Source: Cystobasidiomycetes sp. EMM_F5
Taxonomy: Eukaryota
NCBI GenBank assembly: GCA_051047955.1
Contig: JBPGPT010000007.1
Coordinates: 248,001-312,000 of the forward strand
Reading direction: 5' to 3'
Length of the DNA stretch: 64,000 bases
Translations under genes and position numbers: made by a program
The notes under the pieces: model-generated
What the model was told of the DNA's origin: nothing
Seen by the model: only the letters and a program-made list of their open reading frames with translations
The model's database searches: none
In this document: positions 4,374 to 60,046 of the stretch, in pieces
Position numbering within the stretch: position 1 is the stretch's first letter
Layout of the letters: every line of letters begins with the position of its first letter

Positions 4374-7077
4374 CTACAGGTCGACATCAATGTCATTTGC
4401 AAAGTCCTCCAGTACTCGTTGCCGCTGCTGGCTGGCACGCTTGACCTTCTCCCATCGAGGGTCCTCAAGGTTGAATGCGTGAATACTATCAATCGGCGTA
4501 GCTGTCCCTGAAGTTCCTGTCCTGCTCATGCCCAGAACAGCAGTGGTTCTAGTTGCAGTGGGTGCCCTCTCGGCTTTTGGATTGCTAGCACGGATAGCAT
4601 CGACTGACGCCCTGCGGTCTTTGTCACGACTCTCCTCGTGCTCTGCAACATTGGACAGCTGAGCTGTGAGATGTTGCAGCGGACCACTGTCGAGACCACT
4701 TGGCGCGAGTGGAAGTAAGCTCAGACTCGTGCCATTTCGAGATAGAGTAGTGCTAGATAGTGAGGACGGTCGGGCTGATGAATTTGGCGGCTGACCTGCC
4801 GTGTTCGGAGTAGCTAGACTATGAAAATACGGACCGCCGTTCCATTGCGACTGAGCAATACCCAATCCTGGGCTGAGAAGCGGAGTAACGTGCCTCGGAG
4901 TGGTAAGCGTACTGCTTTGAGACGAGATTGTCGGAAGCGTATGTACACTGCCAAGCTCTGGCACGCTCGAAATATCAGAAGATCGTCTAACTGCGTCCCT
5001 GTAGGCTGTTCGGAAGGTCTGAGACGTGCCTACCGCTCTTTGAGCGAAAGCCGAGCTAAGTGGGCGTGTCGGTCGGTCAGAGGAAGCCATAGAGATAGCG
5101 CTTGAGTAATTGGCATCATCAGACGAGGCCATCGAGGAGCGCCTGCGTATGCGCGTGTAATTGGCTCTTGCATATGGTCTTAGCATTGCGTCGTTGTGAA
5201 GTGCTGAGGTAAACCCCGTGACTGTTGATCCACTTCGAGGGTTGTGATCGCTAGCACTGCCTTCATCATTTGGCGGCGTTGTCAAGGCGGCTGCACCACC
5301 ATCAGGACGCGGAAGCAGTTGCATTGAGTCGGAGAGAACTTCCATATCATCTTCGTCATCGTCGTCGTCCAAAGCGGAGCCAATGCTGGGACTCAGGGCG
5401 TCGGTACTGTCTACAGTACTCTCGCGGAATGCACGTCGTGTCCGATCTGCCTCATCGGCAGGTGAAACGGTACTTCCACGTCTAGAAATAATCAGAGTCG
5501 CATCGTACTCGGCTGAATCCGTTTGCTTGCTGCTGCGGCCGAAACCAGGAAAGCTGGGTAATTTTATAGTCTTGACTTTTGGCCACACAAGGTTCTCGGA
5601 TATCCACGCTCGTACGCGACCGAGTATCAGCTGTTCCACTTTCGGTATATTCTGCAATTTGGCTCGGGACCCGATGATCGATGTGATGGCTAATTCCAAG
5701 ATGAAGTCTGGATGCAAAGACAGGGAAAGCGCTGATTCTCCAGCTTTTGTTTTCGGCACCTCCGGCATGGATAATGGACTGTCCGGTGCTCGGGCATTTA
5801 GGATGGAAGGTTCCGTGGAAGCGGGCGGAATCTCCAAGGTGAGCTGTCGGGAAATATCTCAATGGGTGAAGCCGCGTTTATCATGTGTATCGGCATGTAC
5901 TGACCGTTGCGGAGAAGCGAGCTAAGGCCACGGCCAAGCTGATTGGGATTATTGCAAATTTGGGTTTTGGGAAGTTGATGAATACCTTAGTCTCGATGCT
6001 GAGACCGACATGATCAGAATAGTCTATATCGACTTCGATTCTCTGTCGGCGGGGGTTGTTTAGCCGAAGAGCTTGAAACCCAAACTGTGCAACGTGAGAC
6101 TTACAACCTTGCCAGTCTCATTACTTGGTCTTACTCGAGCATTGCTGACGACGGGATAATCTTGTCCAAAGTCACAGTCCGTTACGGTGATGTAGTCGAG
6201 GGTAACCATACTGGAGGCTTTCTCATTCTTGCCGCGAACTGAATTGAGTTCCTTTTCGACGTAGCGTTTCGTCCTGCTGCCATTGCTTGCATCCCAGCCA
6301 TCCTCGTCCAAGTCATCTGCATCAGGCTCGTTACCTCCTGTTGTAGAGTTGGCAGTAGACGCGGTCGGAGCTAGAAGCATATTACGATATGCAGATACGG
6401 CTTGCGCGACGAGGACATTGAGCCAATCTGCCGACTCGGCGCCATGGGCAGACAAGTCGTAGCCTAGCTTTGACAAGAGAATCGCGTCGCTCTGAGGTAG
6501 TATCGCCGAAAATAAGCCTTGACCGGACGATGCCTTGTTTCGGCTCGTTATCGAAGGTCGCCGTTGGCGCTTGAGGGCGGTATTTCGCATGCGCTGTACG
6601 AGTAACAGGACAATAGGAGTAGCAGAGTAAGAGCAGCGTAAGCCTGCATTGGCCCGAGTGGAGGAAGCAACTCTGCAACATACCTTCTTTCTGCGCTTTC
6701 CGGCTTCACGCAAAGCGACTTTTGGATCCTCAAAGACGACATAGCGTAGAAAGAGGACTGCCACGAGGATGCTGGAGAGTTGTAAGGGCATTCGTATTGA
6801 CCGTTTGCGAGTATTATCGGTTTATGGCAGCGGGATATCGTCGGAAATTGGCGCAGCGTCAGGCAATATGGGAATCTAGAGATGAGTCCCGAGTCTGCCT
6901 GCCATCTCAGCGACAGCACAACACTCACAGACTGGCTTGTCCGCAGAGGAAACCAGCGCTAAAGGTCAGTATCCGGTATCGCGTTGGCAGCGGTGGAATC
7001 GCAACAGCCAGGTAGCCAGCGCCGAATCTGCCAGCGGCTGCAGCTGCGTCGTTGGTGCCAGGCGATGAGTCCGACAT
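4374..7077 (-). CDS. MMM1: ERMES complex subunit Mmm1 (SMP lipid-transfer domain) with long low-complexity C-terminal tail
   Basis: TM segment SILVAVLFLRYVVFED; SMP motifs AESADWLNVLVAQ, LDYITVTDCDFGQDYP, INFPKPKFAIIPISL and SIIGSRAKLQNIPKVEQLI; ATG at 7077. Confidence 0.9.
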
Positions 7078-8647: not shown

Positions 8648-11600
8648 TCACTCTCGATAATCCTCATCATCCGGCTCTTCGAATTCCTCGTCATCATCGT
8701 TCCTCATCGCTGAATCCCCTGCATTCCGCTCGTCTTGCATCCTGGCGTCCCGCCCGCGCCTTGCTGCATTTCTGCTGTACGAAGTACTCGACCGCTCTGC
8801 TGTTGCCGCTCCAGCCTTCGAGCCCTTCCTAGTACTGCTAGCAGCTGCTCTCCGACGAGAACCAGTACCGAGAGCACCCGACAAGAGCGAGTTGTGCTTC
8901 TTTGCAGGGCTCGTAGGAGTTCGTCCGTGGGATGACATCACTCCCGCTGCAGACATGCCGCTTTCCAACGATGTATCAAACACAGAAGGGTGGGGCCCGC
9001 TAGAGGGGACACTTCGCATGTTTGAAACTTCGCTCCGACTGACATCCGACCCGGATGGTGGCTGCATCGATGCCAAGTACTCTGCATGCTGATGTTGCTG
9101 CTGGAATTGCTGTTGCTGCTGGTATCGATGCTGTTGTTGTAGCTGATGCTGATGCTGTGCTTGCAGCGCATATTCGTATCTCTCTTGACTGTTCTGATGG
9201 ACTAGACTGCCTGGAATTGCATGGTAGCTTGCAAGCGGGTGACCATAACCTGCAGCCATGCCATGAGGGCGTGCAATGATAGCTTCGGCTGGGATAGGAG
9301 AAGGCAAACTGCTAATCAGGTGACGCAAACTAGCAGAAGGTGCGGGCTGAGTCTGTGCAGCAGCAGCGTGATGTGCGTCTTTTTGATATCCGTGTTGTGC
9401 ATACCCATGCCGAAATTGGCCGGAAGTCTCCCTTGGACTTTCCTCCGGTTGAGCAGAACCGTGCATCGTAGAAGGAGTATGACTGAGATCAGGCGTCTCC
9501 ACTGGCGCAGAGATCGATCGTCCATGCGATTCTGCATGAGATGTTGGGTGTAGACTACCGCTCGCGGCAGTTGGCATACCGGCATATGCTGGATGTGCTC
9601 CTAAACCCAGTCCGACGTTGCCAGACTGGAGGGCATAAGTCTGGCCATCTCCCTGCGTCTTACCAGGATAGCTTGTTGAAGCATGCCGATTGTCTGAGCT
9701 TAAAGAGCGATTCAATGCTGCTGAAGAAGCGAATTGACCAGAATTACCGAAGCCATGCATTCGCGGCTCGGGCGCGCGATCTCCGTAGAGTGTGACACTA
9801 CTCGCAGCGCTGGCTGGCGTTTGAGGTTGTGCAGGAGACCCTGGATCTCCCGGAAGGCCTGCCGACCCTGGACTTCCCACTCCACCACCGTGACCGCCGT
9901 AAGCGGCGCCTGGCACAGGCAGCCTGTTCTTCAATGATGACAAGGTAGGTAGACTATAGGGCGTGTACCGAGGAGAAGGTAAGCCTAGAGGTACAGCACC
10001 CGTTGGCGAAAGTCCAGCGGAAAGCGGGAGACCAGGCACTCCGACGATGCCCGGCGACGGAATACTGCCTGAGCCAGTTGCATCAGAAAGCAAAATGGGT
10101 TTACCCCCTGTTGCAGCGATTGTGTCCTCGTAGTGCTGTTGTCGGACACGGCGCTTCTGTCGTTGCAACGACGTATTGAAGTGGTTCTTGATTGCATTGT
10201 CTCTGTCAAGTTCGTGAGTATATCAGCTTGTGCAAACCAGCAAGGCGCTCTTGAGAAAGGCTTACGGCCGACCGGGGAGATGCTTGGCAATCTCCGCCCA
10301 CTTTGAGCCTAACTGGCTATACAAGTGAAAGATGATCTCGTCTTCATCTGGAGTGAAAGGACCTTTCTTGACTGTCACAAAGGTCGCATAGTCAGTCATT
10401 TCCGTATATCAGTATCATGAAAGTAAGGCCTACTGTTGGGATCGAGGTGGTTATGCCATCGTTCTCTGCACTGTTTGCCGGTCCTTGTTACCATCTTGCT
10501 AGCAATAATGACCCATTTCTCCGGTCCGAATTCTTCAGTAAGTTCGAATAGATGAGCGTCTTCCTCCGGTGTCCACGGTCCTTTATGTCCCTTGGGTTTC
10601 GACAGCAGCTTCCATCGCTCGATGCACTCATCCTTGGTATGGGTTCCGTCGGGGAATGCTCGCTTTGAGATTTCCGGCCACGAACGGCCAAGAGTACCAT
10701 GCATGACTTCTCGTAAAGCCGCATCTTCCTCCTCTGTCCAAGGATGTGCGGAACCTGCATGGGTTGCTTCTGCAGGCTCGGCAGGAGCGGAAAGATCTGC
10801 TTCATCGTCAAGAGGGTCTGCACTTTCCTCGGCTTCTACAGCACCTCCGTTAGATGAGGTCGAAGAGCCCGAACGTCCGCCAGCGCCACCCTTCTTGGAC
10901 CCTGTGCGCGATGCAGCAGCGCCCGCGGCAGCTACGGCTGCTGCAGCTTCGCGAGCAGCTCGAACGTTCGCAATTATGCCTATGCCGCTGGCAGATCCGG
11001 GTGCGGCACTATATGCTCCACCAACAGGTGGCAGAGCGCCAGCGACAGGAGGGCGCGCTGCTCCGGTATGCGGATGTGCTGAGTAACCGTAGTGCCCAGC
11101 GTACCCTTGACCATACGCGTAGTGGAAGGCAGATTGAGGGGGGACAGCAGTAGCAGGAGGAGATGGACCATGCGGGCCTGCACTTGTAATACCAGACGAA
11201 GAACTCGAAGATGATGCCGTAGCTTTCAGAGTGGGGGGTGTCGGGTGTCCATGACCATACATTTGATAGGCGTACGGATGCTGTGCTGGATGCGCATAAT
11301 GCGGCGACATTTGCGCATGATAATGTGGGTACGCGTGTGGATGCGCTATATGTCCATGCACGGATGCATAGACGGGTGAAGCGGCGTATCCGGCCGTGCC
11401 TGCTGCGATATAATCTGCATATCCACTGGTGCTGATTGTAGCAGATGCTCCAGTGCCTGAAGTCCCGCCTAATCCGCTCGGATTGCCATAGCCAGGATGT
11501 ACAGGTTGTGCATACGCACCTGCCACTCCAGCGGAGTATGTCGCATACGGCTCGGCCTGTGTCTGTGAGTGCTCTTGAGTACGCGAGAAGTAGGATGATC

Positions 11601-20371: not shown

Positions 20372-20942
20372 AGTATGTTCTCCGCATATTCGCACTTTCT
20401 GTTTCACCTCGTTCACGACGGACATTATGCTCACGAGTAAATCACGAACCAACGTTGTTATCCTACCATGCATGTCATCAAGACTATGCCTTCTTAGCTT
20501 TATGCTTGAGTTGTTTGATTTTGCGTCACCGTCGGCGTGCCTGACACGCGCAAAGCTGGGGAAGGATATTCAACAGACCATTGCAATACAGCAACAAAGA
20601 GGAGGAAGTCTGTTGAAGATGATCATTTATCGTGAGGCGTACTGAGTCACGTCTCTGTCTGTCTTTCTCGAGCTGCAGCATGCATTGTGTGAATGCCTTC
20701 AATCTGATCATGAATCAATCCCCGTCAACATGTTTGAATATATGTTAGTTAACCGTTGCGCCTCGTGTCATTCTGACAAACGTGGCCAGCTTGTCTGACC
20801 GTTGCAACGGCTTGTCGTCTGTCACTTGCCACCCATTTGCGCAATCATCCGGTCATCTCGTTGGCAAACTCCGAGAATTCAGGCGTGAACTCAGGGTTGC
20901 GACAGAACACACCGCGACAGAACCTCTGAGCACAGCGCAGCC

Positions 20943-22455
20943 ATGTCGGCTCAAATAGCAGAGCAGACTACAGACAGCCCGCAGTCGCTCTCGACGAGCA
21001 CTTCGAGCAGCTCCAGCCGCGACAGCAACAGCACCACAAACTCGGTCCCTCGACTAAACAAGCGCAAACTTGCGTGGATACCCGACGCTCCATCCGACTT
21101 GGGCTATGCAGACGCACAAGAGGAGCAGCGAGCTCGCTTGCCCAGATACCTGCACATTTCCCTGTACGCTTCTGATGTTGCGCTGCTGCCTACCCCTTCT
21201 TTCGTTGCGAGTCGATCTCAGCCGAAAGCAGCAACACATTCGTTTCGATGGACTAGCACGCCAGTCGACGTTGGCAGTGTCGCGGCACTCTCAGCTTCCG
21301 ACCTTCTCGCTGGAATCCCTCTCCAAAATACTCGCTGCCTCAGTGGAAGTCGCTTAGCGTTGGCAAGAATAGCAAGAGGTCGCGTCACTGCCGCTGCAGC
21401 TTTGTCTTCAGCAGCCAACAGTCAGCAAATGCCACCAGAATCTCCTTCTTCCTGGGTTCCGCATCCTGTGGCTCTTCCTGCCAGGGGTACAGGCAGCAGA
21501 GGCGGTAGAGGGCGTGGAAGGGGAAGGGGACGTGTTGACCACACTCGGGAATACCATTCAGCTGCGCAGGCTGGCACGTCAACGTTACCTCGAGCACCTG
21601 GTCTGGCCCGAACGTCAAGTGCTACTTCTCTAGCCAATAAGCGCACTGCTCTGCAAAGGCAAGATAGTGCTGAAACGCTTGGCCTGCCCAGCCCCACGAA
21701 ACGGAATGGCCGCGCCGTGTCACCTAGACCCGGTATACCTGTAGCACCACTTCCGCCCTCCCTGACTGTGAACGGCCCGTCGTCTCCTGGAGAAGACGAT
21801 AGTCCAGATGACGATACGTACGTACCAGGCAAACCTCGGCTCAAACCTTCAGCTCATTCGCCTCCGGCATCTGGACCTTCCAGAGGACATGGCGTGAACC
21901 GCAGAGGTAGAGGTGGACGAGCTGTGTCTCACGCTTCTGGCTTGATGCCCGTGCCTGGGGCAACAGCGTCCGGAGCGGTCAGTGGAAGCGAGTATGATTC
22001 CGATGCGTCTGCGGCATCTGTGCGATCAACGCCTGGAAAGCGAGCTAGAGGATCTCGCAAACGCAAGGTGTCCAACGATACGAGTCGCATTGCGAGCGAT
22101 GCATCTAATGACCCGGCGGCCGATGTCGATGCTGCCGGAACTGAGGGAGATGAGGGTTCCGATGCGCCTCTTCTGAAGAGGATGAAATCTTTACCTGCTC
22201 TATCAGTAGCGGCAAGGAATCTCAAAACTACCGCGCCGAAGTTGCATAGCCCTTTGAGCAATTCTTTCACTGGTCCGCTATCCGCGACCAGGATACCGTC
22301 CGTCCTCGGCAGCGAGTCTTCCCTCGTAGCGAGTCCAATCAACACTGTCCATCAGACAACGACGTAAGTCTGTCTGTGCAAAGCTGTCAATGCGCACGCA
22401 AGTGCTGAATGTTTTTGTCGTCAGCTTGCCACAGGATGTGTCTGCTCGGTCTTAG
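20943..22455 (+). CDS. Hypothetical low-complexity protein (RG-rich, basic clusters)
   Basis: 474-codon ORF plus a short final exon after the gtaagt donor near 22363; RGGRGRGRG tracts and KRARGSRKRK basic patch. Confidence 0.7.
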
Positions 22456-28392: not shown

Positions 28393-31300
28393 ATGGATGT
28401 GTCAAATACAGCCAAAAAGCTGGTGAGTCAGTGATTGCATCTTGTCGAAATGTTCTGAATCTGTCACTTCTCGCTCCCACTTGCAGAATGCACTGACACC
28501 ACCTGCTCCACCCAACGACAAATCCAACCTGCCCTTTACCGGACTTTCCGAGTCAGTGCTGTACAAGGCGACAGAGTCAGGTAACTGACATGCTCCCAGT
28601 CCCGCCACTACTTCCAACAGTGCACCGTTCTTATACGCAGCAGTAGCTCGTCGTGGATCCCTTTCTACGCACGCTCACGTATCGACTACCCCTTCCACCG
28701 CTGACAATCTCGAATTGAGCTTCTCGTCTTCGACTTCTGCTCAAAATACACTGCCTCCTACGCCCGTACAGGACCAGCGAAAGGCTAGTCAATCTAGGTA
28801 TCCATTCTCCAAGCTTCCAGGAAAGCACTCCAACACAGACTCAGAGTCTTTCAATCTATATCCACCCTCTCCACCTACTACGAATCCTCGTGACCAGTTG
28901 AAATCTCTGTTCTCCCGTCCTGTTATGTCTCCTCTTTATCGCGGTCATCTCGACCAGAGCTTCGCTTCGTCGTCCGTTAGCCCTGTATCCTTACCTCCAC
29001 CTGCACGGCTTCAGTACTGCATCGGGGACAATGACAGTCCATCGTCGCTCCGTCAGCATAGCGGCAGAGGCGTGCACTTTGGTATGCCTTATGACTCGCC
29101 AATTCCTCCTCGCGCAAGAAGCGCGAGTTCACTCTCCTCCATTTCATCTGCTCACTATGACGTGAATGCAAAGCCCTCACCGACAGCATCTGTCTTTGCG
29201 GCTGATACACAATCGCAGTATCAGGAGGCAATACGGCAAACTGCATCTGCAGGAATGGACGATGATCTACATGGTAGAATGGGTCTCAGTGCTCGCTCTC
29301 CTACGTCCTCCACACATGTATCTCCTGCTACATCTACTCGTGCTGCTTCTTCCTCTTCGGCGGTGTCTTCACACTCGATGTCAAGACCTTCCTCAAAGCA
29401 ACAACAAGATCTTCATGTTGTTGCTGCTCGCCCTGAACCGACTGCAAGCAATTCACAGCAAGAAAGCGCTGGCGACACTTTGCTTCAATCAATGCTGTCG
29501 AAGCTTGACCTTGATGGACATTCGGCAAAGGACGAAGCGGATCTCTGTGCTAGGGAGAACCGAGCTGAAAAGCCCGTCAGTGCCAAAAATGAGCCGACCG
29601 TTACACATGACGCGCGCGATGACAAGCTGAGCGTGGCTTTCAAGCACTCTGATTCTTACAAGACAAACATATCTCAGCCGCCCTTGAGCAGTCTCTCGCA
29701 GGACAAAATCACCCCTCTTTTCGACCCCTCCAAAGCCAATCAGGCAGGAACCGAGACTCGTTATGTCTTCGTATCGGGCTTGCCATCTATGCCTGATTTT
29801 GACGTTGTTGAGATGGTTGAGGCTTTCAAGGCGAGTTTCCGCTCATCTATGCTGTCTTCCGCTGTCTGACTCACATCCTTACCTCATATTCAGAAGTATG
29901 CACCGCTCAGAGGCGTATTTGGCCGCGCATTGTATCTGCATGGCATCGTCGTCCTTTCTTACTTTGACACAAGATGTGCAGCACGCGCCCTTCGAGCCAT
30001 CCATCTGGACTCCAATCCTGCTTTCCACTATAGGAATCTGCAAGGTACCTTCATTACCCGACAGCAGTTCCTTCAGGTAAGTCATTGAATGCAGCACGCT
30101 TGCAGGTTTGATCCGATCACATCTGATATCGAATGTCCTAGATTGCGGACGGCTGGTTTGCAAACAAGCTTCTTTCTATCGGAGAAGGCAAGCTGCTTGT
30201 TCGAGCTGAAATTTTCAACCCGACAACATTGGAGGTCTGTCTGCCATTCAACAAGCACTTGCTGGTCCGTCAGGTTGATGAGACTTGCTGTTTACACAGG
30301 ATTACTTCCGCACCTTTGGCGACATAAAATCTTTGACTTTATCTGCCACGGAGCCGGGCCTCTATCATTTAGAGTATTTCGACGATAGTATCGCTTGCAG
30401 TGCCTTTACGAGAATCACTGAGCGAGCAGTGAGTACCATTTTCGCGGTATATTGCAGCAGCATGCTAAGTCGACGACTTCAGATTGCAGGACTTGATATC
30501 GGATGGGAAGACATTCAGACCCTTGTAAGCCGACCGACATACCTCCTCATTCCGGAATCGGCACTGACTGATATGCGCTACTCAGAACGATCATGTCCGC
30601 TCACAGACCCACTCGAGTGATCTTCCGTTCGAGAAGGTCATCTCTGCTCCGCGTAATACCCCGATCTATCGGACAGCATCCCCACCTTTGCAGGCACTGC
30701 CTGTTCCTCGATTGCATCAGCGATTCCCAGATAGCTCGCAAGATACATCCCTCGGAACTCCAAACACTTCTGGAACATCCGACTCAAGCTATCCCTCTTT
30801 CCTCACAAGCCCTTATCAGCCGTCCCCGAGTACCTCGGCTTCTGTATCCGCTTCAGCGTATGAGAGAGAACGTCAGCGAGAAGAGCCAAAGCTACCATCT
30901 GGCTTTGCGTCAGCTCTGAACAAGCCTGTCACCAGACCTCTTCCTCCCATTCCTGGTTTGGAAGGTCAGTATGTTCCCAATGATCCCAAGTCGCCATACG
31001 GCAGCAACGGAAATAACTGGGGTCTATTGCGAGACGAGTGAGTCCGCTTGTACTCTACTGACTTCAGTCATGCTGATCGACCACTTCTGCTAAACAGTCC
31101 TATCCCCGCCAACAATGTCATTCACTTTGACAGAATCTTCAGTGGCCAAGAGACGCGCACTTCATGCATCCTTCGTAACCTTCCAAACCGAATGACTCAG
31201 CTCGAATTGATGGAAGTGAGTCAGAGTTCCTCCAGCAACACGCCCTCGCACTCTAACGATGCCGTGAAGGATCTCGACCAAGTCGTTCCAAAAGAGTACG

Positions 31301-35435: not shown

Positions 35436-35507
35436 GGAATTGACCGAGTCTCTCTTTGCCAAGTCACCGAGACTTGCCTTCTAAGGCAGCTTACCTCGGT
35501 CAATTCC
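35436..35507. repeat. Perfect 13-bp inverted repeat with internal hairpins in the PhoD/RPL3 divergent promoter
   Basis: GGAATTGACCGAG (35436-35448) and CTCGGTCAATTCC (35495-35507); an extra direct copy AATTGACCGAG at 35421-35431. Confidence 0.8.
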
Positions 35508-35751
35508 TCTTTGCAATTTTTCCAGAGGAAGATTCGATTGCAGGAGAGGGAGAGAGGGGAGAATTTGCAGAGTTGCGACAGAGTGGACACCCATAAAGCA
35601 GCGAGGTGAGCAGGATAAAATACTCTTACATTAGCACACGCTGACACTGTGCACAGTCTCCTCAGGTATGCACGCTCACTCGTTACCCGGGGGCAATGGC
35701 GTTTTAGGCTTACTAGAATGCAATCCCCCGTGATGTGATGGAAACACAGAC

Positions 35752-37135
35752 ATGTCGCACAGAAAGTTTGAGCATGTGAGTGCGACTTTATGCTGTGACG
35801 AGAGAGTGAGGCTGATGGTCTACGACAGCCCCGACATGGCTCCCTGGGCTTCCTCCCGAGAAAGAGGGCGGCCCGTCACAGAGGCAAAGTAAAGTCGTTC
35901 CCAGTCGACGACCCAAAGAAGCCTGTACACCTCACCGCCTTCCTCGGGTACAAGGCCGGCATGACGCACATTGTCCGAGAGCTCGAGAGGGTAAACTCGA
36001 GTGAGTGGGGTCGACTTGGAGGAAATTACAACCAGCTCACCGTCTGTTCCACGCGTTCCCAGAAATGCACAAGAAGGAGATTGTAGAGGCATGCACAGTC
36101 ATCGAGACACCCCCAATGGTCGTCGTCGGTGTAGTCGGCTACGTCGAGACTCCCCGTGGTCTGCGATCACTGACTACCGTGTGGGCCGAGCACCTGTCCG
36201 ACGAGGTCAAGCGGAGATTCTACAAGAACTGGTACCGCTCAAAGAAGAAGGCTTTCACAAAGTACGCCGCTCGTCACGCAGAGTCGTCTGGCAAGTCGGT
36301 ACAGCGTGAGCTAGAACGAATCCGCAAGTACTGCACCGTCGTCCGTGTACTCGCCCACACCCAGATTCGAAAGACCGGTCTCAGCCAAAAGAAGGCTCAC
36401 CTGATGGAGATTCAAGTGAATGGCGGTTCCGTTGCCGACAAGGTCGAATTTGCCAAGTCGCACTTTGAAAAGACGGTCGACGTGTCGTCGGTCTTTGAGC
36501 AGGACGAAAACATTGATGTCATTGGCGTCACAAAGGGTCACGGATTCGAAGGTGTGGTAGCGAGATGGGGCGTAAAGAAGCTGCCACGAAAGACGCACAA
36601 GGGTCTCCGAAAGGTCGCTTGTATCGGCGCTTGGCATCCAAGCAAGGTCATGTTCTCAGTCGCTCGTGCAGGTCAACGCGGTTACGGTCATCGTACAGCG
36701 ACAAACCTCAAGGTGTACCGTATCGGAAAGGGCGAAGATAATGCAAACGGTTCTACCGACTTTGACATCGTCAAGAAGGACATCAACCCGCTCGGTGGTT
36801 TCGTACGATACGGTCTCGTCAAGAATGACTTTGTACTCCTCAAGGGTTCCACACCAGGCGTCAAGAAGCGTGTCCTCACCCTCCGAAAATCTCTTCAGAC
36901 TCATACCTCAAGGAAGGCACTCGAACAGATCAGCCTCAAGTGGATTTCCACTGCTTCACAGTACGTTGTGTTACTCTTTGGTGGATGTGGGGCTCTTTTG
37001 GGCCCGCACGCCACCGAAATGATCTTCAACAATACTGAATATACTTGCTTCTAATCACTTAGGTTTGGGCATGGACGTGCACAAACGAAGGAAGAGAAGG
37101 AGCAATTTTTGGGACAGCGGAAAATCCGGGCTTAG
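35752..37135 (+). CDS. RPL3: 60S ribosomal protein L3 (uL3), multi-exon
   Basis: [52 protein letters not shown] and final exon FGHGRAQT; stop TAG 37133-37135. Confidence 0.98.
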
Positions 37136-37576
37136 ACATTTTTCATTTTGTTTGTCTTCGTTTGTCCTGGTGGCGAAGTGTGAGTGTTGCAAAAACGCTG
37201 CATTACAATCCTTGAGTGTGACTGCGACTGTAGCTGGTCACTCCTTCACCATCAGCGACTGATCTCCTCCCTGTTTGCCCTCCTTGACTACTTATATCCC
37301 TCCTACCTCGGGCGCACGGTCCCATAAACCGTTGCGACCGCTCACTAATTTTCAATCGAAACTCCGTCACTCCCTGGGTATAAATCTAGCATTGTTTGTT
37401 GTTTTCTGGTTTGATTCCTTTCCAAAACACCCAGTTCTGAAATTAACATCACCCCTGGCCCTCAAACAGCAAGTATCTTTGCGCTGACATTCTATCTGAC
37501 ACTAGCAACTGCGACTGACGCCCATCTAACCTGAATGTTGCATGCGCTCTTATACTCACAATCACACAGCATTGCT

Positions 37577-39188
37577 ATGGCACGATGCAAAGATGTCGAA
37601 TGCAACAAGCAGTGTCCCAAAGGAGTCCCTTGGTGTGCTCCTCATCGCGAGGGTAAAATTCTCACGTCGGCGCAGCAAGCTGCACTTGATCAGGTCAGGG
37701 CAGACTTACCAGCGGTGAGCTATACTGATGCGATTGACAGTCTCGCAAATACCACGCCGAGAAGGCTTCAGCTCGCGTCAAAGCCGGCAAGTGCCAACAA
37801 GGCTGCGGGCGAGACGTTGTCACTGGCAGACGGTGCAGGGAATGCAATGACAAAGTATGTTAACCTCATTCCCGCTCTCATAGATGCTGACACTCCTCCG
37901 CAGTCGAATGAGTACCGTAACGAGTTCCGCAGCGACCGTAGAGAAGACGGTGTATGTCGCGAAGGTCCTTGCGGCAAACCAGTCCACCCCAATTCACCCT
38001 TCTGCACTGAACATCGTGCTGCCGAGCTGGTCCGGACAAACGCACGGTATGAGTTATACAAGCAAGCTCAGTTGTGCATTACGCCTGGATGCAGCAAGCC
38101 TTTGGAGGATGACGAGACAGCAGTAAGGTGCTCGGACTGCCGTCAGCATCGCCGCGAGGTGAGCAAGCTCAGCCTTCTTTAGCTGCATCTGCTGACTAGG
38201 TCACAGTCTGAAGCAGTCAATCCCGAGGCCAGAGTAGCCGCCAAGGAACTGCCTTTGTCGTCACTGTCGCTCCTCGAAGCAATCGATCTGAAGCACGACT
38301 ACCTCAAGCTGCGATTGGCCAAGGTCAACCTCCCAGACGCATCGGCCGAGTACTGTTACGTTGACAGCGAGATTGACACTCGCAAGGCGGATGTCAATAC
38401 TGCGGAAAACGTCAATGAATTCACGTGTCTTGATTTTGACAATGACGGAAAAGTAAGCTTGTTCGTACACGATTTGCATCAATCAAACTAAGCCATTCGC
38501 ATTCCAGCCCATCTTCATCTACTTTCAAGCAGCTGGAAATAGGCCAAGCGAGGATGAATTGGCAGAGTTGGCTGCCGTGTTGGCCGAGAAGCTCAAGAGT
38601 CGTAACATGGTCCTCTACGGTGTCAGTCTGTGCGACTTGCATCGTTACGCCGACATCATCAAGAAGGCTTCAAACTTCCGCTACAAAGACGTTGCTCCGA
38701 AGACGTTTGAGCCTCAAAACCAATTGTTTGCTGCCAAATTCGGCATCTTCAGTAACGATCCTGCCGATGAATTCCGTTCTGACCGACCAATCTACGTACC
38801 GTATCAGGGCCTGTCCGCTCTCTTTGATTGGATGGGGAAAAAGCCTTCCAACGGCCCAGTCGTGTATGCTGACTGGGTCAACAAGGCCTTCTACAAGAAC
38901 AAACCGTCTGGCAAGTCTGCCGATGACTGTATCAAACTCTTCGCGCTTCTGCGCGTTCTGCGCGATGTCAAGGCTGGCGTACGCTTCTCTGCCAAATACC
39001 GCCAGAACACCTTTGCATCCTTCTTCAAAGCACCTGCACCGGCTTCTTCTGCATCTGCATCTACTTCCTTCAATTCGCAGCTGCATCCACTTCATTCGCA
39101 ATTGCATCCACCTCTACAGCCTCCACCTCAGGCAAGAGAAAGCGTGATGATTGATTCATCATTAGCAGTAATATCAGTAAAGAAATAA
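37577..39188 (+). CDS. Orphan protein with three Cys/His zinc-finger-like repeats and a probable DEDD-like exonuclease domain
   Basis: Two C-x4-C-x10-C-x2-H repeats and one C-x4-C-x12-C-x2-C; introns near 38159-38206 and 38453-38507 keep the frame; YVDSE, VLYGVSLCDL and SADDC motifs. Confidence 0.65.
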
Positions 39189-39645
39189 AGTCCAGCAGTA
39201 GCAGCAACATCACTTCAAAAACGACGTAAACGAATTAGACTTTAGTCCCAATCAGTTGATCTAGAAACAAGCCAGTGCCTCAGTCCATGACATTCCAGCG
39301 TTGTATGCATTCAAAGCCATGCGCATTACCATCACTGCGACCATTGCTAGCATTCTGCCGTATCTACGGGGTCAACAATGAAAGAATGACGTGCGTTTTT
39401 GCCACTGCATCGGAAGCAATTCAAGGGATTGCATCTTGAGCAACCAAGACACCTTCTCCAGGACGGAGTGTGCACACCTGATCTGCTACAACGCTGCTCG
39501 AAGACTCAGTCTTGGAGGAATCACTTCGGAGTGACTCAAACGAGCGCCGCGCGAAACTCCGACTCTGACGAGGACGTGTAAAGGAGGCCAACTCCGAAAA
39601 CAACAGTAAACAGGCCAGCCATAACACTCTTATCTGTCACACACA

Positions 39646-40438
39646 ATGTCCTTCTTCCACAACGACCGGAATCGCACGATAACATCTCCCTTGCGAAAGA
39701 TTAGTCGAAAGAAGCCGCCTACTGTGGACGGGCATAACGATGCGAGCGGGGGAAGGAGCGGACAAAGCAGCAACAACACGAGCAACGAGCATGTGGACAA
39801 CAACAACGGGCACGCCAATGGTTCTAGCGTAGATCAGGATGAATCGAGAAGACAGTCGCAGTATTCGATGGACGAAAGTACACTCTCATCACCGGATAAC
39901 ACGACTGCTCCAGCATCGAGAAAACAGTCAACCTCCTCGTCCAACCATATGCAATCTCATACTCACGATTCCAGAAAACACTCGATAGCTTCCATACCCG
40001 AAGATGCTACCCCGGTTGACACGGGTCGCGAGCACGAGGTGAAAGAGAACCCAGGCTTCAATCCGTGAGGCTATTAGTTGACAGGTGAAGATGGCTCATG
40101 CTGCTGATATCTGCGATACTTCGACATTGCTTGAAATGCAGCTCACCTCGTGAAGTAGGAAACGGTACAGGAATATTTGAAAAGGGAGATGCATCGCACG
40201 AGATTAGCAGTAAAGAAGATTATGAACTGTGTAAAGAGCAAGTGACGAGCGATAGTGCGGTGGACAAGGTAACGGATCATTTCAAGCTGGTAAGCGTGAA
40301 ATCGAGTCGATGAGAGCGGAGATGGAGGACTGACAAAATAGCGACTGCCAGGTGCGAGATCTGAAGCCTTTGGATGCTACAGCTGGAATGGATGCCGATC
40401 TGGACAAGAGTAGGCGTGATGTGGAGAACATAACCTAG
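39646..40438 (+). CDS. Small hydrophilic hypothetical protein, multi-exon
   Basis: MSFFHNDRNR... ORF joined by GT-AG introns to PREVGNG...DHFKL|VRDLKPLD...ENIT*. Confidence 0.7.
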
Positions 40439-40968
40439 CGGTCAGATGTGCTAATATGCTTGGTTTCAGGGGCAAAGCAAGAAGACGAGCAGAGATGACT
40501 GCTCTCCCGCTGCGCACTACATATCACACACCAATTACCGCAGTACTACAAGTCAGACATGCTCAGTATATATTCTTCGTCGGGTCACGCCAAACCGACG
40601 CAGCCTTCGGAGCCCGAATCCCGGACGTCTTCAGCCGACAACAATGTAACCAATTCTTGCAAATGCAAATGCAAATGTAGAATAGGCTGGGACGACAGCA
40701 CAACAAAGCGTAAATATTCTTTTGATTGTAGAGCCTGACTTTGCGCGACAGACTTGTATGCTAGACTTGATCCAGGCTTTTGCCAATTTGGACTTTGGTT
40801 TTAGGCAGTGTAACCTTGAACGGCTGCCATTACCGTACAGCGACTGTGAATCTCGATGGAAGCCTGCACACGACGAGCAACAGCAGCAGCGACGACGGAG
40901 ACACTCTGTGCGGATTGCTAGCAGATGACTGCGTTGATGCATATCGACATTCTGAAATCACCGTCAAC

Positions 40969-43900
40969 ATGAACACCAACACCAATGGCTATGCGATCCA
41001 GCACCAGCAACAGCAGCAGCAGACGCCGCAGACGCCCTACATGAGTACAGGGATGCTCACGCCAGCCATATCGCAGCAGCAGATGCAGCTCCATCAGCAT
41101 CTGATGCTCCAGCAACAGCAGCAGCAAACGCATCATCAAACGACTCCGCCCCAGTCGACGAGCGCGAGTACCTCCCATCCAGGCATGCAGAACCACCAGT
41201 CGCACTCGCAATCAACCACAGAAATCAACAACAGCCTCGACAACGACGACAACGACGATAGCCAGTCGGCAGTCAATGGGAGCACCTCGTCGGGCCACCC
41301 GCAAAAGTTCTCGAGGAGCAAAGGTGTACGTGGACTGCGAGCTCGTGGATGCAATGGCCTCGAGCTGCTGCTTCAGGTCATATTGCAAAACGTGCATTGC
41401 TGCAGAATGCTGAAACTCTGTCGATCTCACTGTGCGCATGAAAACTGTCCGCAAATACGAAACTACCTCGTCTTATTCTGGCGTATGGTCTCCTCCCCCA
41501 CGCCTGGAATGACCCAACCATGCCGCAGGCCTGTCAGCAGTGCAGGGCCGTAAAGCAACGATGCTCTGGCGCAGCAAAGCACCCTTGCGAAAGATGCCAA
41601 CTGTGAGTGCTCGTCTCCATACGTTCCTGACCTAATCGACCTGTCAGAGATCTGGAGTCCCGCCTTGGGCGCCCACGGGAGAGCACGACGAGCAATCGCT
41701 GACTCGCCCTTTTTCGCACTCGCGCTGCCCGCAGGTACAAGCTCGACTGCGTCTTCTCAAAGGACCCTCCTCCCCAGAGCCAAGCTCCCCGCCAGCCTAA
41801 AAAGTCGCAGCCCAAACCGGCTTCTTCCGACCCGGAAACGAGCGCAGCAGTGCTACAGAGGTATGTTGTCGCCTAGCAATCACAGCACCCGCGTGCGATG
41901 CGCATGGCTCGTTTGCTACCCTTTTCTTGTAATCTGACGTGTTTTTACGGGTTGCCCTCGGTGGCGTCTATCCAGCCTGCGCGTCATCACTGAGCGATTA
42001 CGAGCGATTGAAGAGAAGCTAGCTGCAGGCCCAAGGCAAGTGTCGGCTACACCCTCCCAGGCTTCCTTTGGAGGTGGCTTCGATAACGATGTCAAGATTC
42101 CAACGTACGAGTCGGTGTCTGGCGATGTCGGAGATCCCGTCAGTATGGTCACGTCGGCCATCAAAGGCCTCGAATCAGCTATGAATGCTCCCAGTCCATT
42201 CTCCACACACTCTCCCGCTGGTTCCAGCAGTCCGAACGGTACTCAGCGCGACTCGGCGTCTCACGATCAGGATGTTCCAGATGCCATCTCTAGGGGGTTT
42301 GTGAGCGCGGAGGAAGCGCAGCAACTGTTTGACTTGTATGTTATTCATCGGGACAAGACGACTTGCTTGAAATCACTGATTGCCCTTGTCGGGTTGCTTT
42401 CAGCTACTTTCAACGATGCGTCAACTGGACACCGCCGCTGGATGCTGAGTACGATCGCAACATGCATGTCGTGCGTCGGAGGTCCACCTTCTTATTCCAT
42501 GCCATTCTTTCCGTCGCATCCTACTTTTGCTACGTTCCACAAGGAGAAAATGGCTTGCGAAAATACTACGCCATTGTCACTACTCTTGTCGAATCGCTCG
42601 CTCCGCTGGTTGTTTCGCCCAACCCAGCAGAACTCACCATAGATCTACTCATGGGGCTCCTCATCTGCATAGACTGGAAACCCGTCCGCTGCGGCAGTCA
42701 GATGCAGCTTGGTCCAGCAGGGTTTGCACAGTTGCAAGCCCAATCGAAATTGAATCCTTCTTCCGGCTACGTTCTTGGTGGCTTGGCCCTTCGAATATCG
42801 CAATTGCTCAACCTTAGCAGGAGAGCAGCAAATCCGTCGCCAAATGACAAGAAGTCTGTCAATGCTTGCAGATTATGGTTGTGGATCTGTCTGGTCGATA
42901 GTCAGAATGCACTAGCTGAGGGCAAGAACCCAGCACTCGATCCTGCAGACGCCCTGCGCGTCACGAGATTGTTTGCCAGCATCAGAGCAAGACCTTGCGA
43001 CGTCCGACTTGCCGCGATGGTTGAATTATAGTAAGCTTATCTAGCTTCAAATTATTTTTGAGCTGGAAGAGCTGATAGTATCCTCCATCTTTTCAGCGCT
43101 GCCGTCGTTCCTATCGCTGCGGCGCACTATGGTGCTGAGCGCACAGATTTCAGGGCTCTGTATCGCGCCAACATGGCGATCGACCGCATTGCAAAGTACT
43201 GGACCGGGCCCATTGAACAAGCCTTTGTCAGCGGCGATCCGTTGGCCTGCACGTTCCTCAATATGTTCCTCCCATTCGTGCGGGTCGTACTCAATGGCGA
43301 TGTCTTTAGAACCTGGCTTATACGTCAAAAGTCAGAGCTTAATGGACGGGAAATGGATTTAGAGAACACGAGATTCACCCTCACTGCCGAGGAGGCGCAC
43401 TGCATCGGCTTTGCCGTTAGTGCCGCCGAGGAAATGCTCTATGCGCTAAGCACTGCAAGCAAGTCAAAGGGTGCGCAAAGAACGTGTAATTGGGCACCCA
43501 GGGACATGCAGACGGGTCATAGACCGCCGTTGAAGCTTGATGCCGACGTAGCTAGGCGTTTGGCGAGTTCAACAGATCAAGTATTGCTGGTAGTGTATGC
43601 CTTTCCTCCGCTATTTCTAGCCCAGCTCCGGGCAGCCAATATTCTTAATTGCGACCTCGACATGGCACCCGAAATCACTGGCGATCTCATCAATGTCGGA
43701 TTTCCTGCACGATCGCTACTGCCAGCCTCGAAGTTTATGCGACTTCTAGAGTTGTCGGCCGAATTCTATGAAGTCGCCTCGCCCAACAACGACTTTCCGG
43801 CCATACCTCAAGCGCAACTGCTGCGATCAATGGCGTGCTTGTCTGTCCCGACGAGCGGATCGAGCATCATGAGCTATCCTTCAGGAACCGACATATCGAC

Positions 43901-44453
43901 ACTGCAGAACGGTATGCCAGACAGTTGCGCCTATCCCGGTATGCTCAATACACCTTCCAGCATCTTTGGTTCGTCTGCTAGTGCCAAGGCTCACGAATCG
44001 CAGATGCAGCAGGTCGCGGCGAGCATTCCGCCGACGAATCCCAACCTTCCCTTCCCCTACAATTCGATGATTTTCTCAAACGACGGCGGCGAGCGGCTGG
44101 TCGACATTATGGCTACCGCAGTCCCTGATCCGACCAGCTCAAATTCATTACTGGGCTCATTTGCCAAAATCGATGCCGACTGGAATGCCTACTTTCACTC
44201 GGCACCGTCCCTTTCGGTGTACGATAGCATGGCAGCTGCTACCATTCCGTCTACGCTGAATGGTATGGGTTCATCCGGGTTAACGCCAATCAGTAATATG
44301 AATGGCTCTACAGTACCAAAATATGGCGGGCAATCCCCCGATTCTGCCGCAAGTCTTCTCAGCACAACCGCTCCGTCGCCTGGCAGCTATTACGCGCAAA
44401 GTCTTTCAGGCGTTGCTTCTCACCAGCCTCCCCCTCGGCGAACTTATAGCTAG
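40969..44453 (+). CDS. Zn(II)2Cys6 fungal transcription factor
   Basis: Spliced RSKG|ACQQCRAVKQRCSGAAKHPCERCQL|YKLDC binuclear cluster; poly-Q N-terminus; middle region STFLFHAIL...RLWLWICLVD. Confidence 0.9.
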
Positions 44454-57529: not shown

Positions 57530-57789
57530 AAACTTCGGCTGACCAGAGAGTGGAGCCCACTTCGACAGGTGCCAAGTCTTGCGCTTCAAGTTGAGCAGTG
57601 CATGAGTATATGCAGAGCATCAGCTACTTCGACCAACAAAGGGACAAACCTGGCGATGAAGACCTGCGAGTCGAGGCACCGCACGGTACTGCAGCGAGGG
57701 CCACACTGCAGATGACGGAAAGTCCGGGTATCTACAGATGGTCCCCGAGAATAAGACATACACCTCCAAGTTGCTGAGTCGGAGGCAGC

Positions 57790-60046
57790 ATGGTCATGAC
57801 CACAAATCTACGAGATGATACAAATACTCAACGCTTGTTGACAGCCGGACTCTGCTGTGGGGGTGCCAACAATCCGCAAGCCTCAAGTGCGGCCTTGGAC
57901 GACGAGGTAAAACTCGCATCCTTTCGCAAAATTTCTGCCCGAAAGCTCCAGACACCTCACGCGCTAGCTGATGCCGTGCGCACAACTGATCACTCGACGA
58001 ACATCTCAGTACAGCCATCAGCGGCATTTGCGGTGACTCTGCAGGAGTCCTCCGATGGTCCAGTATTATTACACAAACTCTACGATGGTGGGGCTAGCCT
58101 GACACTCACTCTGGACCGTATTCTACATTACCATGCAGCCGCTTCGACTGTTTCTGCGTCGACATACACATGCGCAATGCCTGCTGGCCTTCCCTTGCGT
58201 CATCATGATTGTCATGCCATTCCAAGAGCGCTTCTGTCCTTCAACATACACTTGAAGGCCGGGCGAATATCCCGTAGAAATGTCGAGGCGATGCCTTCGG
58301 AAGAAGTCCGAACAAATTTCGAATTTTTGGCGTTTACGTTTCGCTTCATTAGTCAGAAGCCTCCCTGGCAGTATGGATCACGAGCGAATGCAGCCGACGC
58401 TCGCTCGACAGCGAGTAAATCGCCCTTTGTGCGGGGCTTCGTGGCAACAGATCTTGCTGGATCTGGCTTCTTACAGACTTTTGGTCCGTCATTATACGCG
58501 GGCTTACGTGAAGCCGAGCTTTCGACCAAGGTCCTGGTTCTTGGCTCCTCAGCCGAAAACTGCGACTATAGGAGTTTTGAGTGGGGCCTTTCGCGGTTGC
58601 ACAAGCCTGTGGATTACGCAGCCGACAAAATTGCAGCTCGAAGTGCTAGCGACAGATCACCAAAAGAACCCTCATCACCTTTGCAGCCTGCTCGCGTGAC
58701 AGATCAGTCTACCGGAGCGCTGCATCCGGGTGAAAATCCGTCGCTGTCGTCGTCTGTTGACACCCCAGCCTATGGTACCTCTGGCATCAGGGTGATGATC
58801 AAGCGAGAAGTTTTTGACGAGGCCTCCTGGCAACCGAGTTGTATTCCCTTTACGATAATGCTGGAAGTTCCTCCAATGGCAAGTTGCGTAATGGCTGACA
58901 TAGAACTCGATGCAAGTGTGATCAAGCAAAGCAAAGTTATACCTCCTTTCGCATTTCCGCCGCGCTCGTCACACAGGCACACTCACTCAGACCCTTCGCA
59001 ACTTAGCTCTCGCATAACGAGAGAGGCCTCAAGGTTAACCGGAATATTTTCGCGACGGCGGAATGCCAGCTTGGAGCTCGACCCGACAGCAGGTGAGAAT
59101 TGGCGAACGACTGCACCGCGCGCACTAAACCCTTCGGGGCAAAATCATTCTGTCTGTATATATCCGCGTTTGAGCCCAATTTCCGCAGTGGTCACCGCTG
59201 GAGGTTCTGTGCAAGACCTATTATACTCACATTCCTCATCCACGGGCAGACCCCTATCGCAGTCAGGGCTGCCGGTTATGACTAAATCGGTAAATTCACA
59301 GATTGCGACAAACGGTGGACATGGACGCCTTTCATCTCGTCGAGCTCTATATCAGCAATCAGCAGAAATTGAAACAAGGCGAGACATGGTTGTCGCGAGC
59401 GCATCGGCTGCTGGAGAAATTTCCTTTGTGCGAAAGCCGACGTTTGTAGCGGCTCCAGTATCTCCGCAAACGTCACCTCCTGCACTGCGTCCACAGCCTT
59501 TCAGCTCGCCTGCCAGGAAGCCTACATATATGGTCTGTGCAGATATCCTCTTCGAAACGGTGGGAAGAGCGAGCTCGACAGATTCTCGCTACCCGTGCCA
59601 TACATTGCCTTCTGCGGCTCCGAGACACAGAGAAGACTCCTTGCATACGAGAGCGACTCAAGTTGCGGATGAGGTCAGGTATACAGACAGTACGACTGCT
59701 GGATCTACAAATTTTGTCAGAGAACATCTCGGTATAGCGGAAACGGAGGACAATGTGTACAACGCGCCCCGAGCCGACCTGCTGTTGCGCCAGCTGAGCA
59801 CGTCTTCTGCCGCGTCGCTTCACTTGCAAGACAAGCAGACTGACGACGGCTATTCATCAGACTCGGACTTTTCAGTAAGTGTGCGGAATATGGTACATCT
59901 CCGGCTGAACACAATCATTACAGGATGATGTTAGTGTGGAGAATATCGATGACTTGCTGGAGTCTGTGACGGCGGACTGGACGGCAGCGATAGCACCCGA
60001 ACCCGAAGGCTGCGAGGAGATTGTTTTCGAGCAATTCAGCGGATGA
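57790..60046 (+). CDS. Large hypothetical protein
   Basis: 712-codon ORF with a gtaagt donor near 59875 joining an acidic last exon (DDVSVENIDDLL...EQFSG*); no domain recognised. Confidence 0.7.

Follow-up and report, generated by a model that had tools for sequence, protein, structure and literature searches.

The DEDD exonucleases are defined by four acidic residues together with a His (DEDDh) or a Tyr (DEDDy) in the Exo III motif, and, as far as the account in PMC12129344 goes, a non-canonical centre does not preclude activity. The same account presents Rex3/REXO1 as a protein in which a KIX domain is followed by a CHORD zinc domain, made up of two C3H motifs, and then by a C-terminal DEDDh domain (PMC12129344). 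Here, we analyzed a gene of Cystobasidiomycetes sp. EMM_F5 that is located at positions 37577-39188 of a 64,000-nucleotide stretch of DNA (contig JBPGPT010000007.1, positions 248,001 to 312,000), which is referred to as the window throughout. The gene and all of its features described below lie on the forward (+) strand; it comprises three exons and encodes a product of 502 amino acids (aa). We somewhat favor the reading that this product joins zinc knuckles to a very divergent DEDD (DnaQ-like, RNase H-fold) 3'-5' exonuclease domain of ~230 residues. As in Rex3/REXO1, a C-terminal DEDD-type domain would thereby be immediately preceded by Cys/His motifs of the C3H kind. The ExoI motif reads D-S-E-[IM] here, compared to 'DCEM' in the description of PMC12129344, and the window protein has D-L in ExoII. 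This comparison was made with the published description of Rex3/REXO1, and a difference is that the putative exonuclease part described here fits a DEDDy-type profile better.

A small family with candidate DEDD motifs

The initial annotation of the locus, which was made from the DNA letters and a list of open reading frames (ORFs), had called the gene an orphan. Relatives were searched with HMMER, whereby exon 3 was used as a query against 1.84 billion proteins, one representative per 50% cluster. This led to the identification of P0004 (231 aa; E 2.5e-24, 36% identity), P0005 (218 aa; E 2.6e-06, 30% identity), P0006 (292 aa; E 2.8e-06, 27% identity), and P0007 (211 aa; E 7.1e-04, 26% identity). 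The fifth relative, P0008 (315 aa), is 70% identical to P0006 and came from a profile search of a word-indexed library. None of the five is named or has a precomputed Pfam domain, and they are encoded on contigs of 2.4-4 kb. Since five distant relatives exist, the term orphan is too strong, and the gene is better regarded as belonging to an unnamed family of very few proteins. A word-index search with exon 3 among proteins of 397-2000 aa and an Atlas search with exon 3 alone (0.75) returned nothing, a word-index search with P0004 returned only P0004 itself, and no relative was detected in scans of metagenome contigs with the family alignment and with P0007, nor in a scan of viral contigs.

The window protein and its five relatives share pairwise identities of 21-33%, save the P0006/P0008 pair at 70%. 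Among the alignment columns that have a residue in at least 5/6 sequences, 14 are invariant, and the invariant residues include R322, E364, P370-I371-Y372, P374, W399, K412, S413, D416, G433, and F436. The P-I-Y-x-P motif (38787-38801), to which Y372 belongs, is specific to the family. All five relatives end in Lys/Arg-rich tails, and these basic tails suggest a nuclear location. In P0007, the end consists of an Asp/Glu run of ~40 residues followed by a basic terminus.

Four acidic residues of the C-terminal domain are candidates for the catalytic residues of a DEDD centre. The ExoI-like motif YCYVDSE (38351-38371) contains D247 at 38363 and E249 at 38369, and this D-x-E is kept in all three sequences that cover ExoI (window protein, P0006, and P0008). 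The ExoII-like motif MVLYGVSLCDLHRY (38607-38648) contains D319 at 38634 and the invariant R322, whereby the ExoII position has D,E,E,D,E,D across the family, i.e., it is acidic in 6/6 and Asp in 3/6 sequences. The ExoIII-like motif G-K-S-A-D-D and the helix following it (38910-38957) include D415 at 38922 and D416 at 38925, of which D416 is invariant (6/6) and corresponds to the ExoIII Asp. Five residues before this Asp, at the position of the DEDDh His, the six sequences have G,G,G,Y,G,H, and the Gly of the window protein is G411; four residues before it, at the position of the DEDDy Tyr, a Lys (K412) is found in all six. Thus, the acidic residues D247, E249, D319, and D415/D416 had been placed correctly in the initial annotation, which had also remarked that the usual ExoIII His/Tyr was not visible, as is indeed the case. 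It had furthermore named a lack of conservation of the acids among homologues as an argument against its proposal; the counts given here (D-x-E in 3/3, an ExoII acid in 6/6, the ExoIII Asp in 6/6) point the other way.

P0007 deviates from the other members in these motifs. It is the sole family member with a His-x4-Asp in ExoIII, and its H-S-N-x-x-C-D stretch is the family's nearest counterpart of the ExoII motif from the PF00929 set. P0007 may be nearest to an ancestral DEDDh-like state.

Profile and structure comparisons with DEDD exonucleases

As the curated libraries were blind to the domain, own family profiles were built from bacterial genomes. The templates comprised 34 PF00929 (DEDDh) domains and 23 PF01612 (DEDDy) domains, the latter proteobacterial, and 27 RNase H, 30 RuvC, and 30 response-regulator domains were used as control templates. 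The six-sequence family was aligned with each template by using hhalign, whereby the best local alignment was greedily extended. We then counted the template columns with at least 90% Asp/Glu that landed on family columns consisting entirely of Asp/Glu, so that no residues were picked by hand. In the global mode of hhalign, no alignment was obtained.

Both DEDD templates had 4/4 of their acid columns on such family columns (hhalign score 12.9 for PF00929 and 19.35 for PF01612), compared to 2/7 for RNase H (score 12.7), 0/4 for RuvC (score 13.9), and 2/5 for the response regulators (score 10.5). For PF00929 as well as for PF01612 the four columns are the D, E, D, and D of Exo I-III, and the assignment is the same, namely D247, E249, D319, and D416. 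When the family alignment was shuffled, 4/4 was reached against PF00929 by 0/264 column shuffles and 0/186 block-of-ten shuffles, and against PF01612 by 0/154 column and 4/172 block shuffles. The PF01612 score of 19.35 was reached by 1/154 column and 3/172 block shuffles, which corresponds to an empirical P of ~0.01-0.02. The alignment with PF01612 also pairs residues next to the acids: the T of D-T-E (21/23) with the S of D-S-E (3/3), the conserved Trp ahead of ExoIII (20/23) with W399 (38874-38876; 6/6), the Y (23/23) with K412 (6/6), the A (21/23) with S413 (6/6), and the D (23/23) with D416 (6/6), and the V and L columns that follow meet similar residues of the family. Since K-S-x-x-D aligns on the Y-A-x-x-D of PF01612, the invariant Lys occupies the position of the catalytic Tyr.

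The window family thus has in common with PF01612 the order and spacing of the D-[TS]-E, the ExoII acid, the (D)W, and the x-[AS]-x-x-D-[VA]-x-x-L helix, and among the five templates it is PF01612 that received the top hhalign score (19.35 versus 10.5-13.9). It differs from PF01612 in that the catalytic Tyr, present in 23/23 template sequences, is replaced by the invariant Lys, in its additional invariant P-I-Y-x-P, E364, and R322, in the fusion to zinc knuckles, and in having no Pfam match. With PF00929 (RNase_T/DnaQ, which includes polymerase III epsilon, RNase T, TREX1, and QIP), the family shares the alignment of the four acids and, in P0007, the His-x4-Asp. A hidden Markov model (HMM) derived from PF00929 weakly recognizes P0007 in the register of ExoII (7.5 bits, with 0/300 shuffles scoring as high). 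However, the window protein has a Gly at the His position, the PF00929 profile score is at noise level, and ~17 residues ahead of ExoIII in the window family have no counterpart in the PF00929 type and fit the W-containing segment of PF01612 instead. On this profile comparison, the domain is nearer to the PF01612 type (RNase D/polymerase-A exonuclease, DEDDy) than to the PF00929 type (DEDDh).

For structure prediction, two AlphaFold2 runs were carried out on a seven-row alignment, with P0008 (model 1) and P0006 (model 2) as targets. Model 1 has the order strand-strand-strand-helix-strand-helix-strand-helix; strand 1 ends with the D-x-E, and the acids of ExoII and ExoIII are each found where a helix begins. 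In a Foldseek search of the PDB, a DnaQ domain (8h18, E 6.4e-3) was the best match of this model, and among the 44 matches listed there are 37 that are RNase H-fold nucleases, integrases, or transposases, as judged by the entry titles, including 11 stand-alone DEDD exonuclease domains. The structures that model 1 resembles most, albeit weakly, are DEDDh/DnaQ-type exonucleases. Against BFVD, model 1 matched terminase nucleases, RuvC, and RNase H-like proteins. Together, these predicted structural similarities suggest an RNase H-like fold of the domain.

When P0006 was compared by language-model features, the nearest named clusters included the arenavirus nucleoprotein exonuclease, RNase_H_2, and DNA_pol_A_exo1/B_exo, with scores of 0.84-0.87; as these are under the 0.9 line of the tool, they are taken as a lead only. 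The arenavirus nucleoprotein exonuclease (ExoN) was the second-nearest cluster (0.87). The exonucleases of the arenavirus nucleoprotein and of coronavirus nsp14 carry zinc sites, and nsp14 has a Glu at ExoII. In contrast to these viral ExoN, to which no sequence or fold match was found, the window gene is cellular, carries introns, and is located among housekeeping genes.

A number of points weigh against the assignment as a DEDD exonuclease. On the sequence side, Pfam searches with all family members at E up to 10 gave no DEDD family, and the PDB profile search, PHROGs, and NCBIfam yielded no relevant match to the domain. The hhalign P of 0.036 for PF01612 (probability 1.4%) fails multiple-test correction because five templates were tried; for PF00929, P is ~0.35 (probability 0.1-0.2%), and the score of 12.9 was reached by 18/90 shuffles. 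When the own DEDD HMMs were run singly against the window protein, P0006, and P0008, the scores were inside the shuffle distributions, and every sequence method is below its standard threshold. With respect to the motifs, ExoI is covered by three sequences only, ExoII has Glu instead of Asp in half of the family members, and the canonical ExoIII His/Tyr is absent. On the structural side, the mean predicted local distance difference test (pLDDT) values are poor, with 42.2 for model 1 and 43.2 for model 2. The top Foldseek match of model 2 is a TRAPP subunit, and DEDD domains appear for it only at ranks 20-21 of a wide search. The fold matches, which are weak, were thus reproduced only in part. 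Moreover, the AlphaFold models and the profile tests use one shallow alignment of 6-7 sequences and are thus not mutually independent.

Overall, the evidence for the DEDD reading is convergent but sub-threshold. The DEDD-type exonuclease proposed in the initial annotation stands insofar as the acids are conserved, coincide with the catalytic columns of both DEDD templates, and are almost never matched in this way by shuffles, but no standard threshold was reached. The structural check that had been suggested with it, a comparison of AlphaFold models with DnaQ-like folds by Foldseek, gave a divided result, with a DnaQ domain as the best match of model 1 but not of model 2 and pLDDT values of 42-43. 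We regard a DEDD fold of the domain as moderately probable and, given such a fold, an active nuclease as likely.

Alternative explanations for the conserved acids

The residues at ExoIII could also be explained if the domain was a pseudo-nuclease, i.e., a DEDD-like fold that retains a shape for binding metal or nucleic acid but, owing to the loss of the His/Tyr, no longer catalyzes efficiently, and that would serve as a binding or scaffolding module guided by the zinc knuckles. The Gly at the His position in 4/6 sequences and the Lys at the Tyr position in 6/6 would fit such a loss, as would the Glu at ExoII in 3/6 and the fact that the T-T-G-type residues, which follow the D-x-E in the PF00929 set, are not found in the family. 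We nevertheless consider this unlikely, since the retention of four acids at 21-33% identity (outside the 70% pair) is hard to explain without metal binding and the invariance of K412-S413-x-x-D416 suggests selection on the active-site helix. In addition, non-canonical DEDDh centres are described as inherently active in PMC12129344.

It would be quite unlikely, in our estimation, that the domain is not DEDD/RNase H-like at all and has a new or other alpha/beta fold, in which case the colinear D-x-E...D...D would be a coincidence aided by flexible alignment. The sequence and profile scores, all of which are under the accepted thresholds, leave room for this, and so do the fold matches, which are within the stated noise and were not reproduced by model 2. 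Furthermore, 4/172 block shuffles also had 4/4 acid columns on PF01612, and the P of 0.036 does not withstand correction for the five templates. A coincidence of the acids would, however, not account for the extension of the match to the W, to the K/Y-S/A-x-x-D-V/A-x-x-L helix, and to the secondary-structure place of each acid. Moreover, the same residue assignments were obtained from two DEDD profiles, from which the three control families differ, and the language-model search and model 1 independently indicate the same clan.

Zinc knuckles, gene model and genomic surroundings

The N-terminal part of the product contains three metal-binding repeats, whose spacings in the initial annotation were exactly confirmed on the translation. 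Knuckle 1 (37586-37645) is of the C3H type with C4, C9, (C13), C20, and H23 in the arrangement Cx4C-x10-Cx2H, and knuckle 2 (37955-38014), also C3H, has the identical spacing with C127, C132, C143, and H146. The two are separated by a cysteine-free linker of 103 residues. Knuckle 3 (38075-38149) is of the C4 type (C167, C172, C185, and C188, with a trailing H191; Cx4C-x12-Cx2C). All 11 cysteines of exon 1 are part of one of the three knuckle clusters. In P0008, the counterpart of knuckle 3 (Cx2C-x10-Cx2C) is located at the start of the protein, directly ahead of the C-terminal domain, and thus a knuckle in front of the domain is a feature shared by the window protein and P0008, these two only. 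Pfam gave a sub-threshold IBR match for knuckle 3 (E 0.0099, 16.4 bits versus a cut-off of 24.3), and the knuckle region of exon 1 had no match in a PDB sequence search; the orphan status of this region refers to these Pfam and PDB searches. Neither CHORD nor KIX was matched in the window protein by Pfam at E up to 10. Since 103 residues lie between knuckles 1 and 2, they do not constitute one 70-residue CHORD, and knuckles 2 and 3 are adjacent but combine a C3H with a C4 motif, unlike the two C3H motifs of CHORD.

The three zinc knuckles are all encoded by exon 1 (37577-38158, 194 aa). Intron 1 (38159-38206, 48 nucleotides (nt), GTGAGC...CAG) has a CTGAC upstream of its 3' end and contains an in-frame TAG. 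Exon 2 (38207-38452, 82 aa) would encode a helical lead-in followed by strands 1-3 of the putative exonuclease domain, as judged by the P0006/P0008 alignment and the secondary structure of the models, and intron 2 (38453-38507, 55 nt, GTAAGC...CAG) separates it from exon 3 (38508-39188, 226 aa plus stop), which encodes the remainder of the domain and a low-complexity tail. Both introns fall between codons. They had initially been described as frame-preserving, which holds for intron 1; intron 2 shifts the genomic frame because of its 55 nt. The protein alignment with P0006 and P0008 is unbroken over both exon junctions, and for each of the three exons it is the proposed frame that has the highest codon-usage log-odds, with positive values relative to the remaining long ORFs of the window. 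An alternative in-frame ATG is present at 37535, 42 nt upstream of 37577, which would add 14 residues and is a second candidate for the start codon; the ATG at 37577 has the better start context (G at -3 and +4). An intron within exon 1 was rejected, as the candidates of 26 or 49 nt are too short or frame-breaking.

In the tail, a 21-nt unit occurs three times (39047-39154), the first spacing being 26 nt and the second 21 nt. From the 26-nt spacing onwards, the annotated tail frame no longer follows the repeat register, and it is the other frame that carries on with an Ala/Ser/Thr heptad and terminates in GKRKRDD (stop at 39152-39154), which resembles the Lys/Arg-rich ends of the five relatives. 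The break in register could be a real frameshift or an assembly error. A third intron leading to the alternative tail frame was rejected, since the sole GT...CAG pair would remove the conserved G-V-R-F-S-x-K-Y and leave the frame unchanged. That the locus is a decaying or mis-modelled rather than a working gene, as could be read from this out-of-register tail without the basic end of the relatives and from the fact that no annotated product of the locus was found in the protein libraries, is highly improbable given the open reading frames with canonical splice sites, the best codon log-odds in frame for 3/3 exons, the intact conserved motifs, and the relatives that align continuously over both junctions.

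With its short GT...AG introns and a G+C content of ~52%, the window presents itself as nuclear DNA of the fungal type. The ORF for ribosomal protein uL3 (RPL3; 36005-37054; E 2e-158 against fungal uL3 chains) is located directly upstream, as had been noted from the start, and the gene begins ~440 bp 3' of it; this adjacency is probably incidental. Other neighbours are MMM1, a Myb protein, a MyTH4 protein, a PhoD-like phosphatase, and a kinase. In the initial annotation, the gene was suggested to be possibly domesticated from a mobile element. This idea, as well as a viral origin, found no support and was set aside: the gene is not flanked by terminal repeats, either direct or inverted, in 35500-41500, no second copy is present within the 64-kb window, the G+C content of the gene (0.50-0.52) is like that of its surroundings, and the gene has introns and housekeeping neighbours. 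The locus is best explained as a real chromosomal gene of a filamentous-type fungus, with a single copy within the window.

Some further observations were made in the window. The next downstream gene (39647-41606, +) has a Ser/Asn-rich opening and polyglutamine runs near 41000-41130, and the ORF at 41442-41606 contains a Cys-rich motif that may resemble the fungal Zn2Cys6 DNA-binding domain. At 4374-6818 (-), two adjacent ORFs match positions 168-237 and 4-39 of the MMM1 profile, which fits one gene split by an intron. Five long ORFs of 426-716 aa are without a Pfam match at E 1e-5, namely 8648-10219 (-), 20889-22364 (+), 28589-29866 (+), 43062-44450 (+), and 57778-59925 (+).

Proposed mechanism and significance

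If the domain is a DEDD exonuclease, D247 and E249 at the end of strand 1, D319 at the beginning of the helix that follows strand 4, and D416 in the last helix would hold two divalent metal ions. These ions would activate water, and nucleotides would be removed from the 3' end of an RNA or DNA substrate. K412, four residues ahead of D416, would replace the Tyr that orients or deprotonates the water, and the position of the DEDDh His would be free to vary across the family (Gly in 4/6, Tyr in 1/6, and His in 1/6 sequences). The knuckles, the third of which lies directly ahead of the domain, might recruit the nucleic acid or a partner protein. The function in RNA surveillance or defence that was mentioned in the initial annotation is conceivable and would be pure inference.

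A more far-reaching idea is that the family represents a third DEDD flavour, "DEDD-K", in which K412 takes over the function of the Tyr/His for the water. Its members would be active, nuclear, taxonomically restricted enzymes for 3'-end trimming that are targeted by knuckles and fall outside the curated models. We consider this combination speculative and rather doubtful. In the open-access literature, no description of a Lys-type ExoIII or of a fungal zinc-finger DEDD family of such a kind was found.

Should the DEDD reading be wrong, the window protein would still be one of the few members of an unnamed conserved protein family, which is of modest interest. If it is true, the family would constitute a clade of DEDD exonucleases that is unrecognized by Pfam, NCBIfam, and PHROGs and that has a Lys in place of the His or Tyr by which the superfamily is defined. 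It would be a further example of zinc modules directly ahead of a DEDD domain, like Rex3/REXO1. Furthermore, it would widen the known chemistry of a well-studied enzyme fold, for which the four acids together with K412 would offer a simple and testable case.

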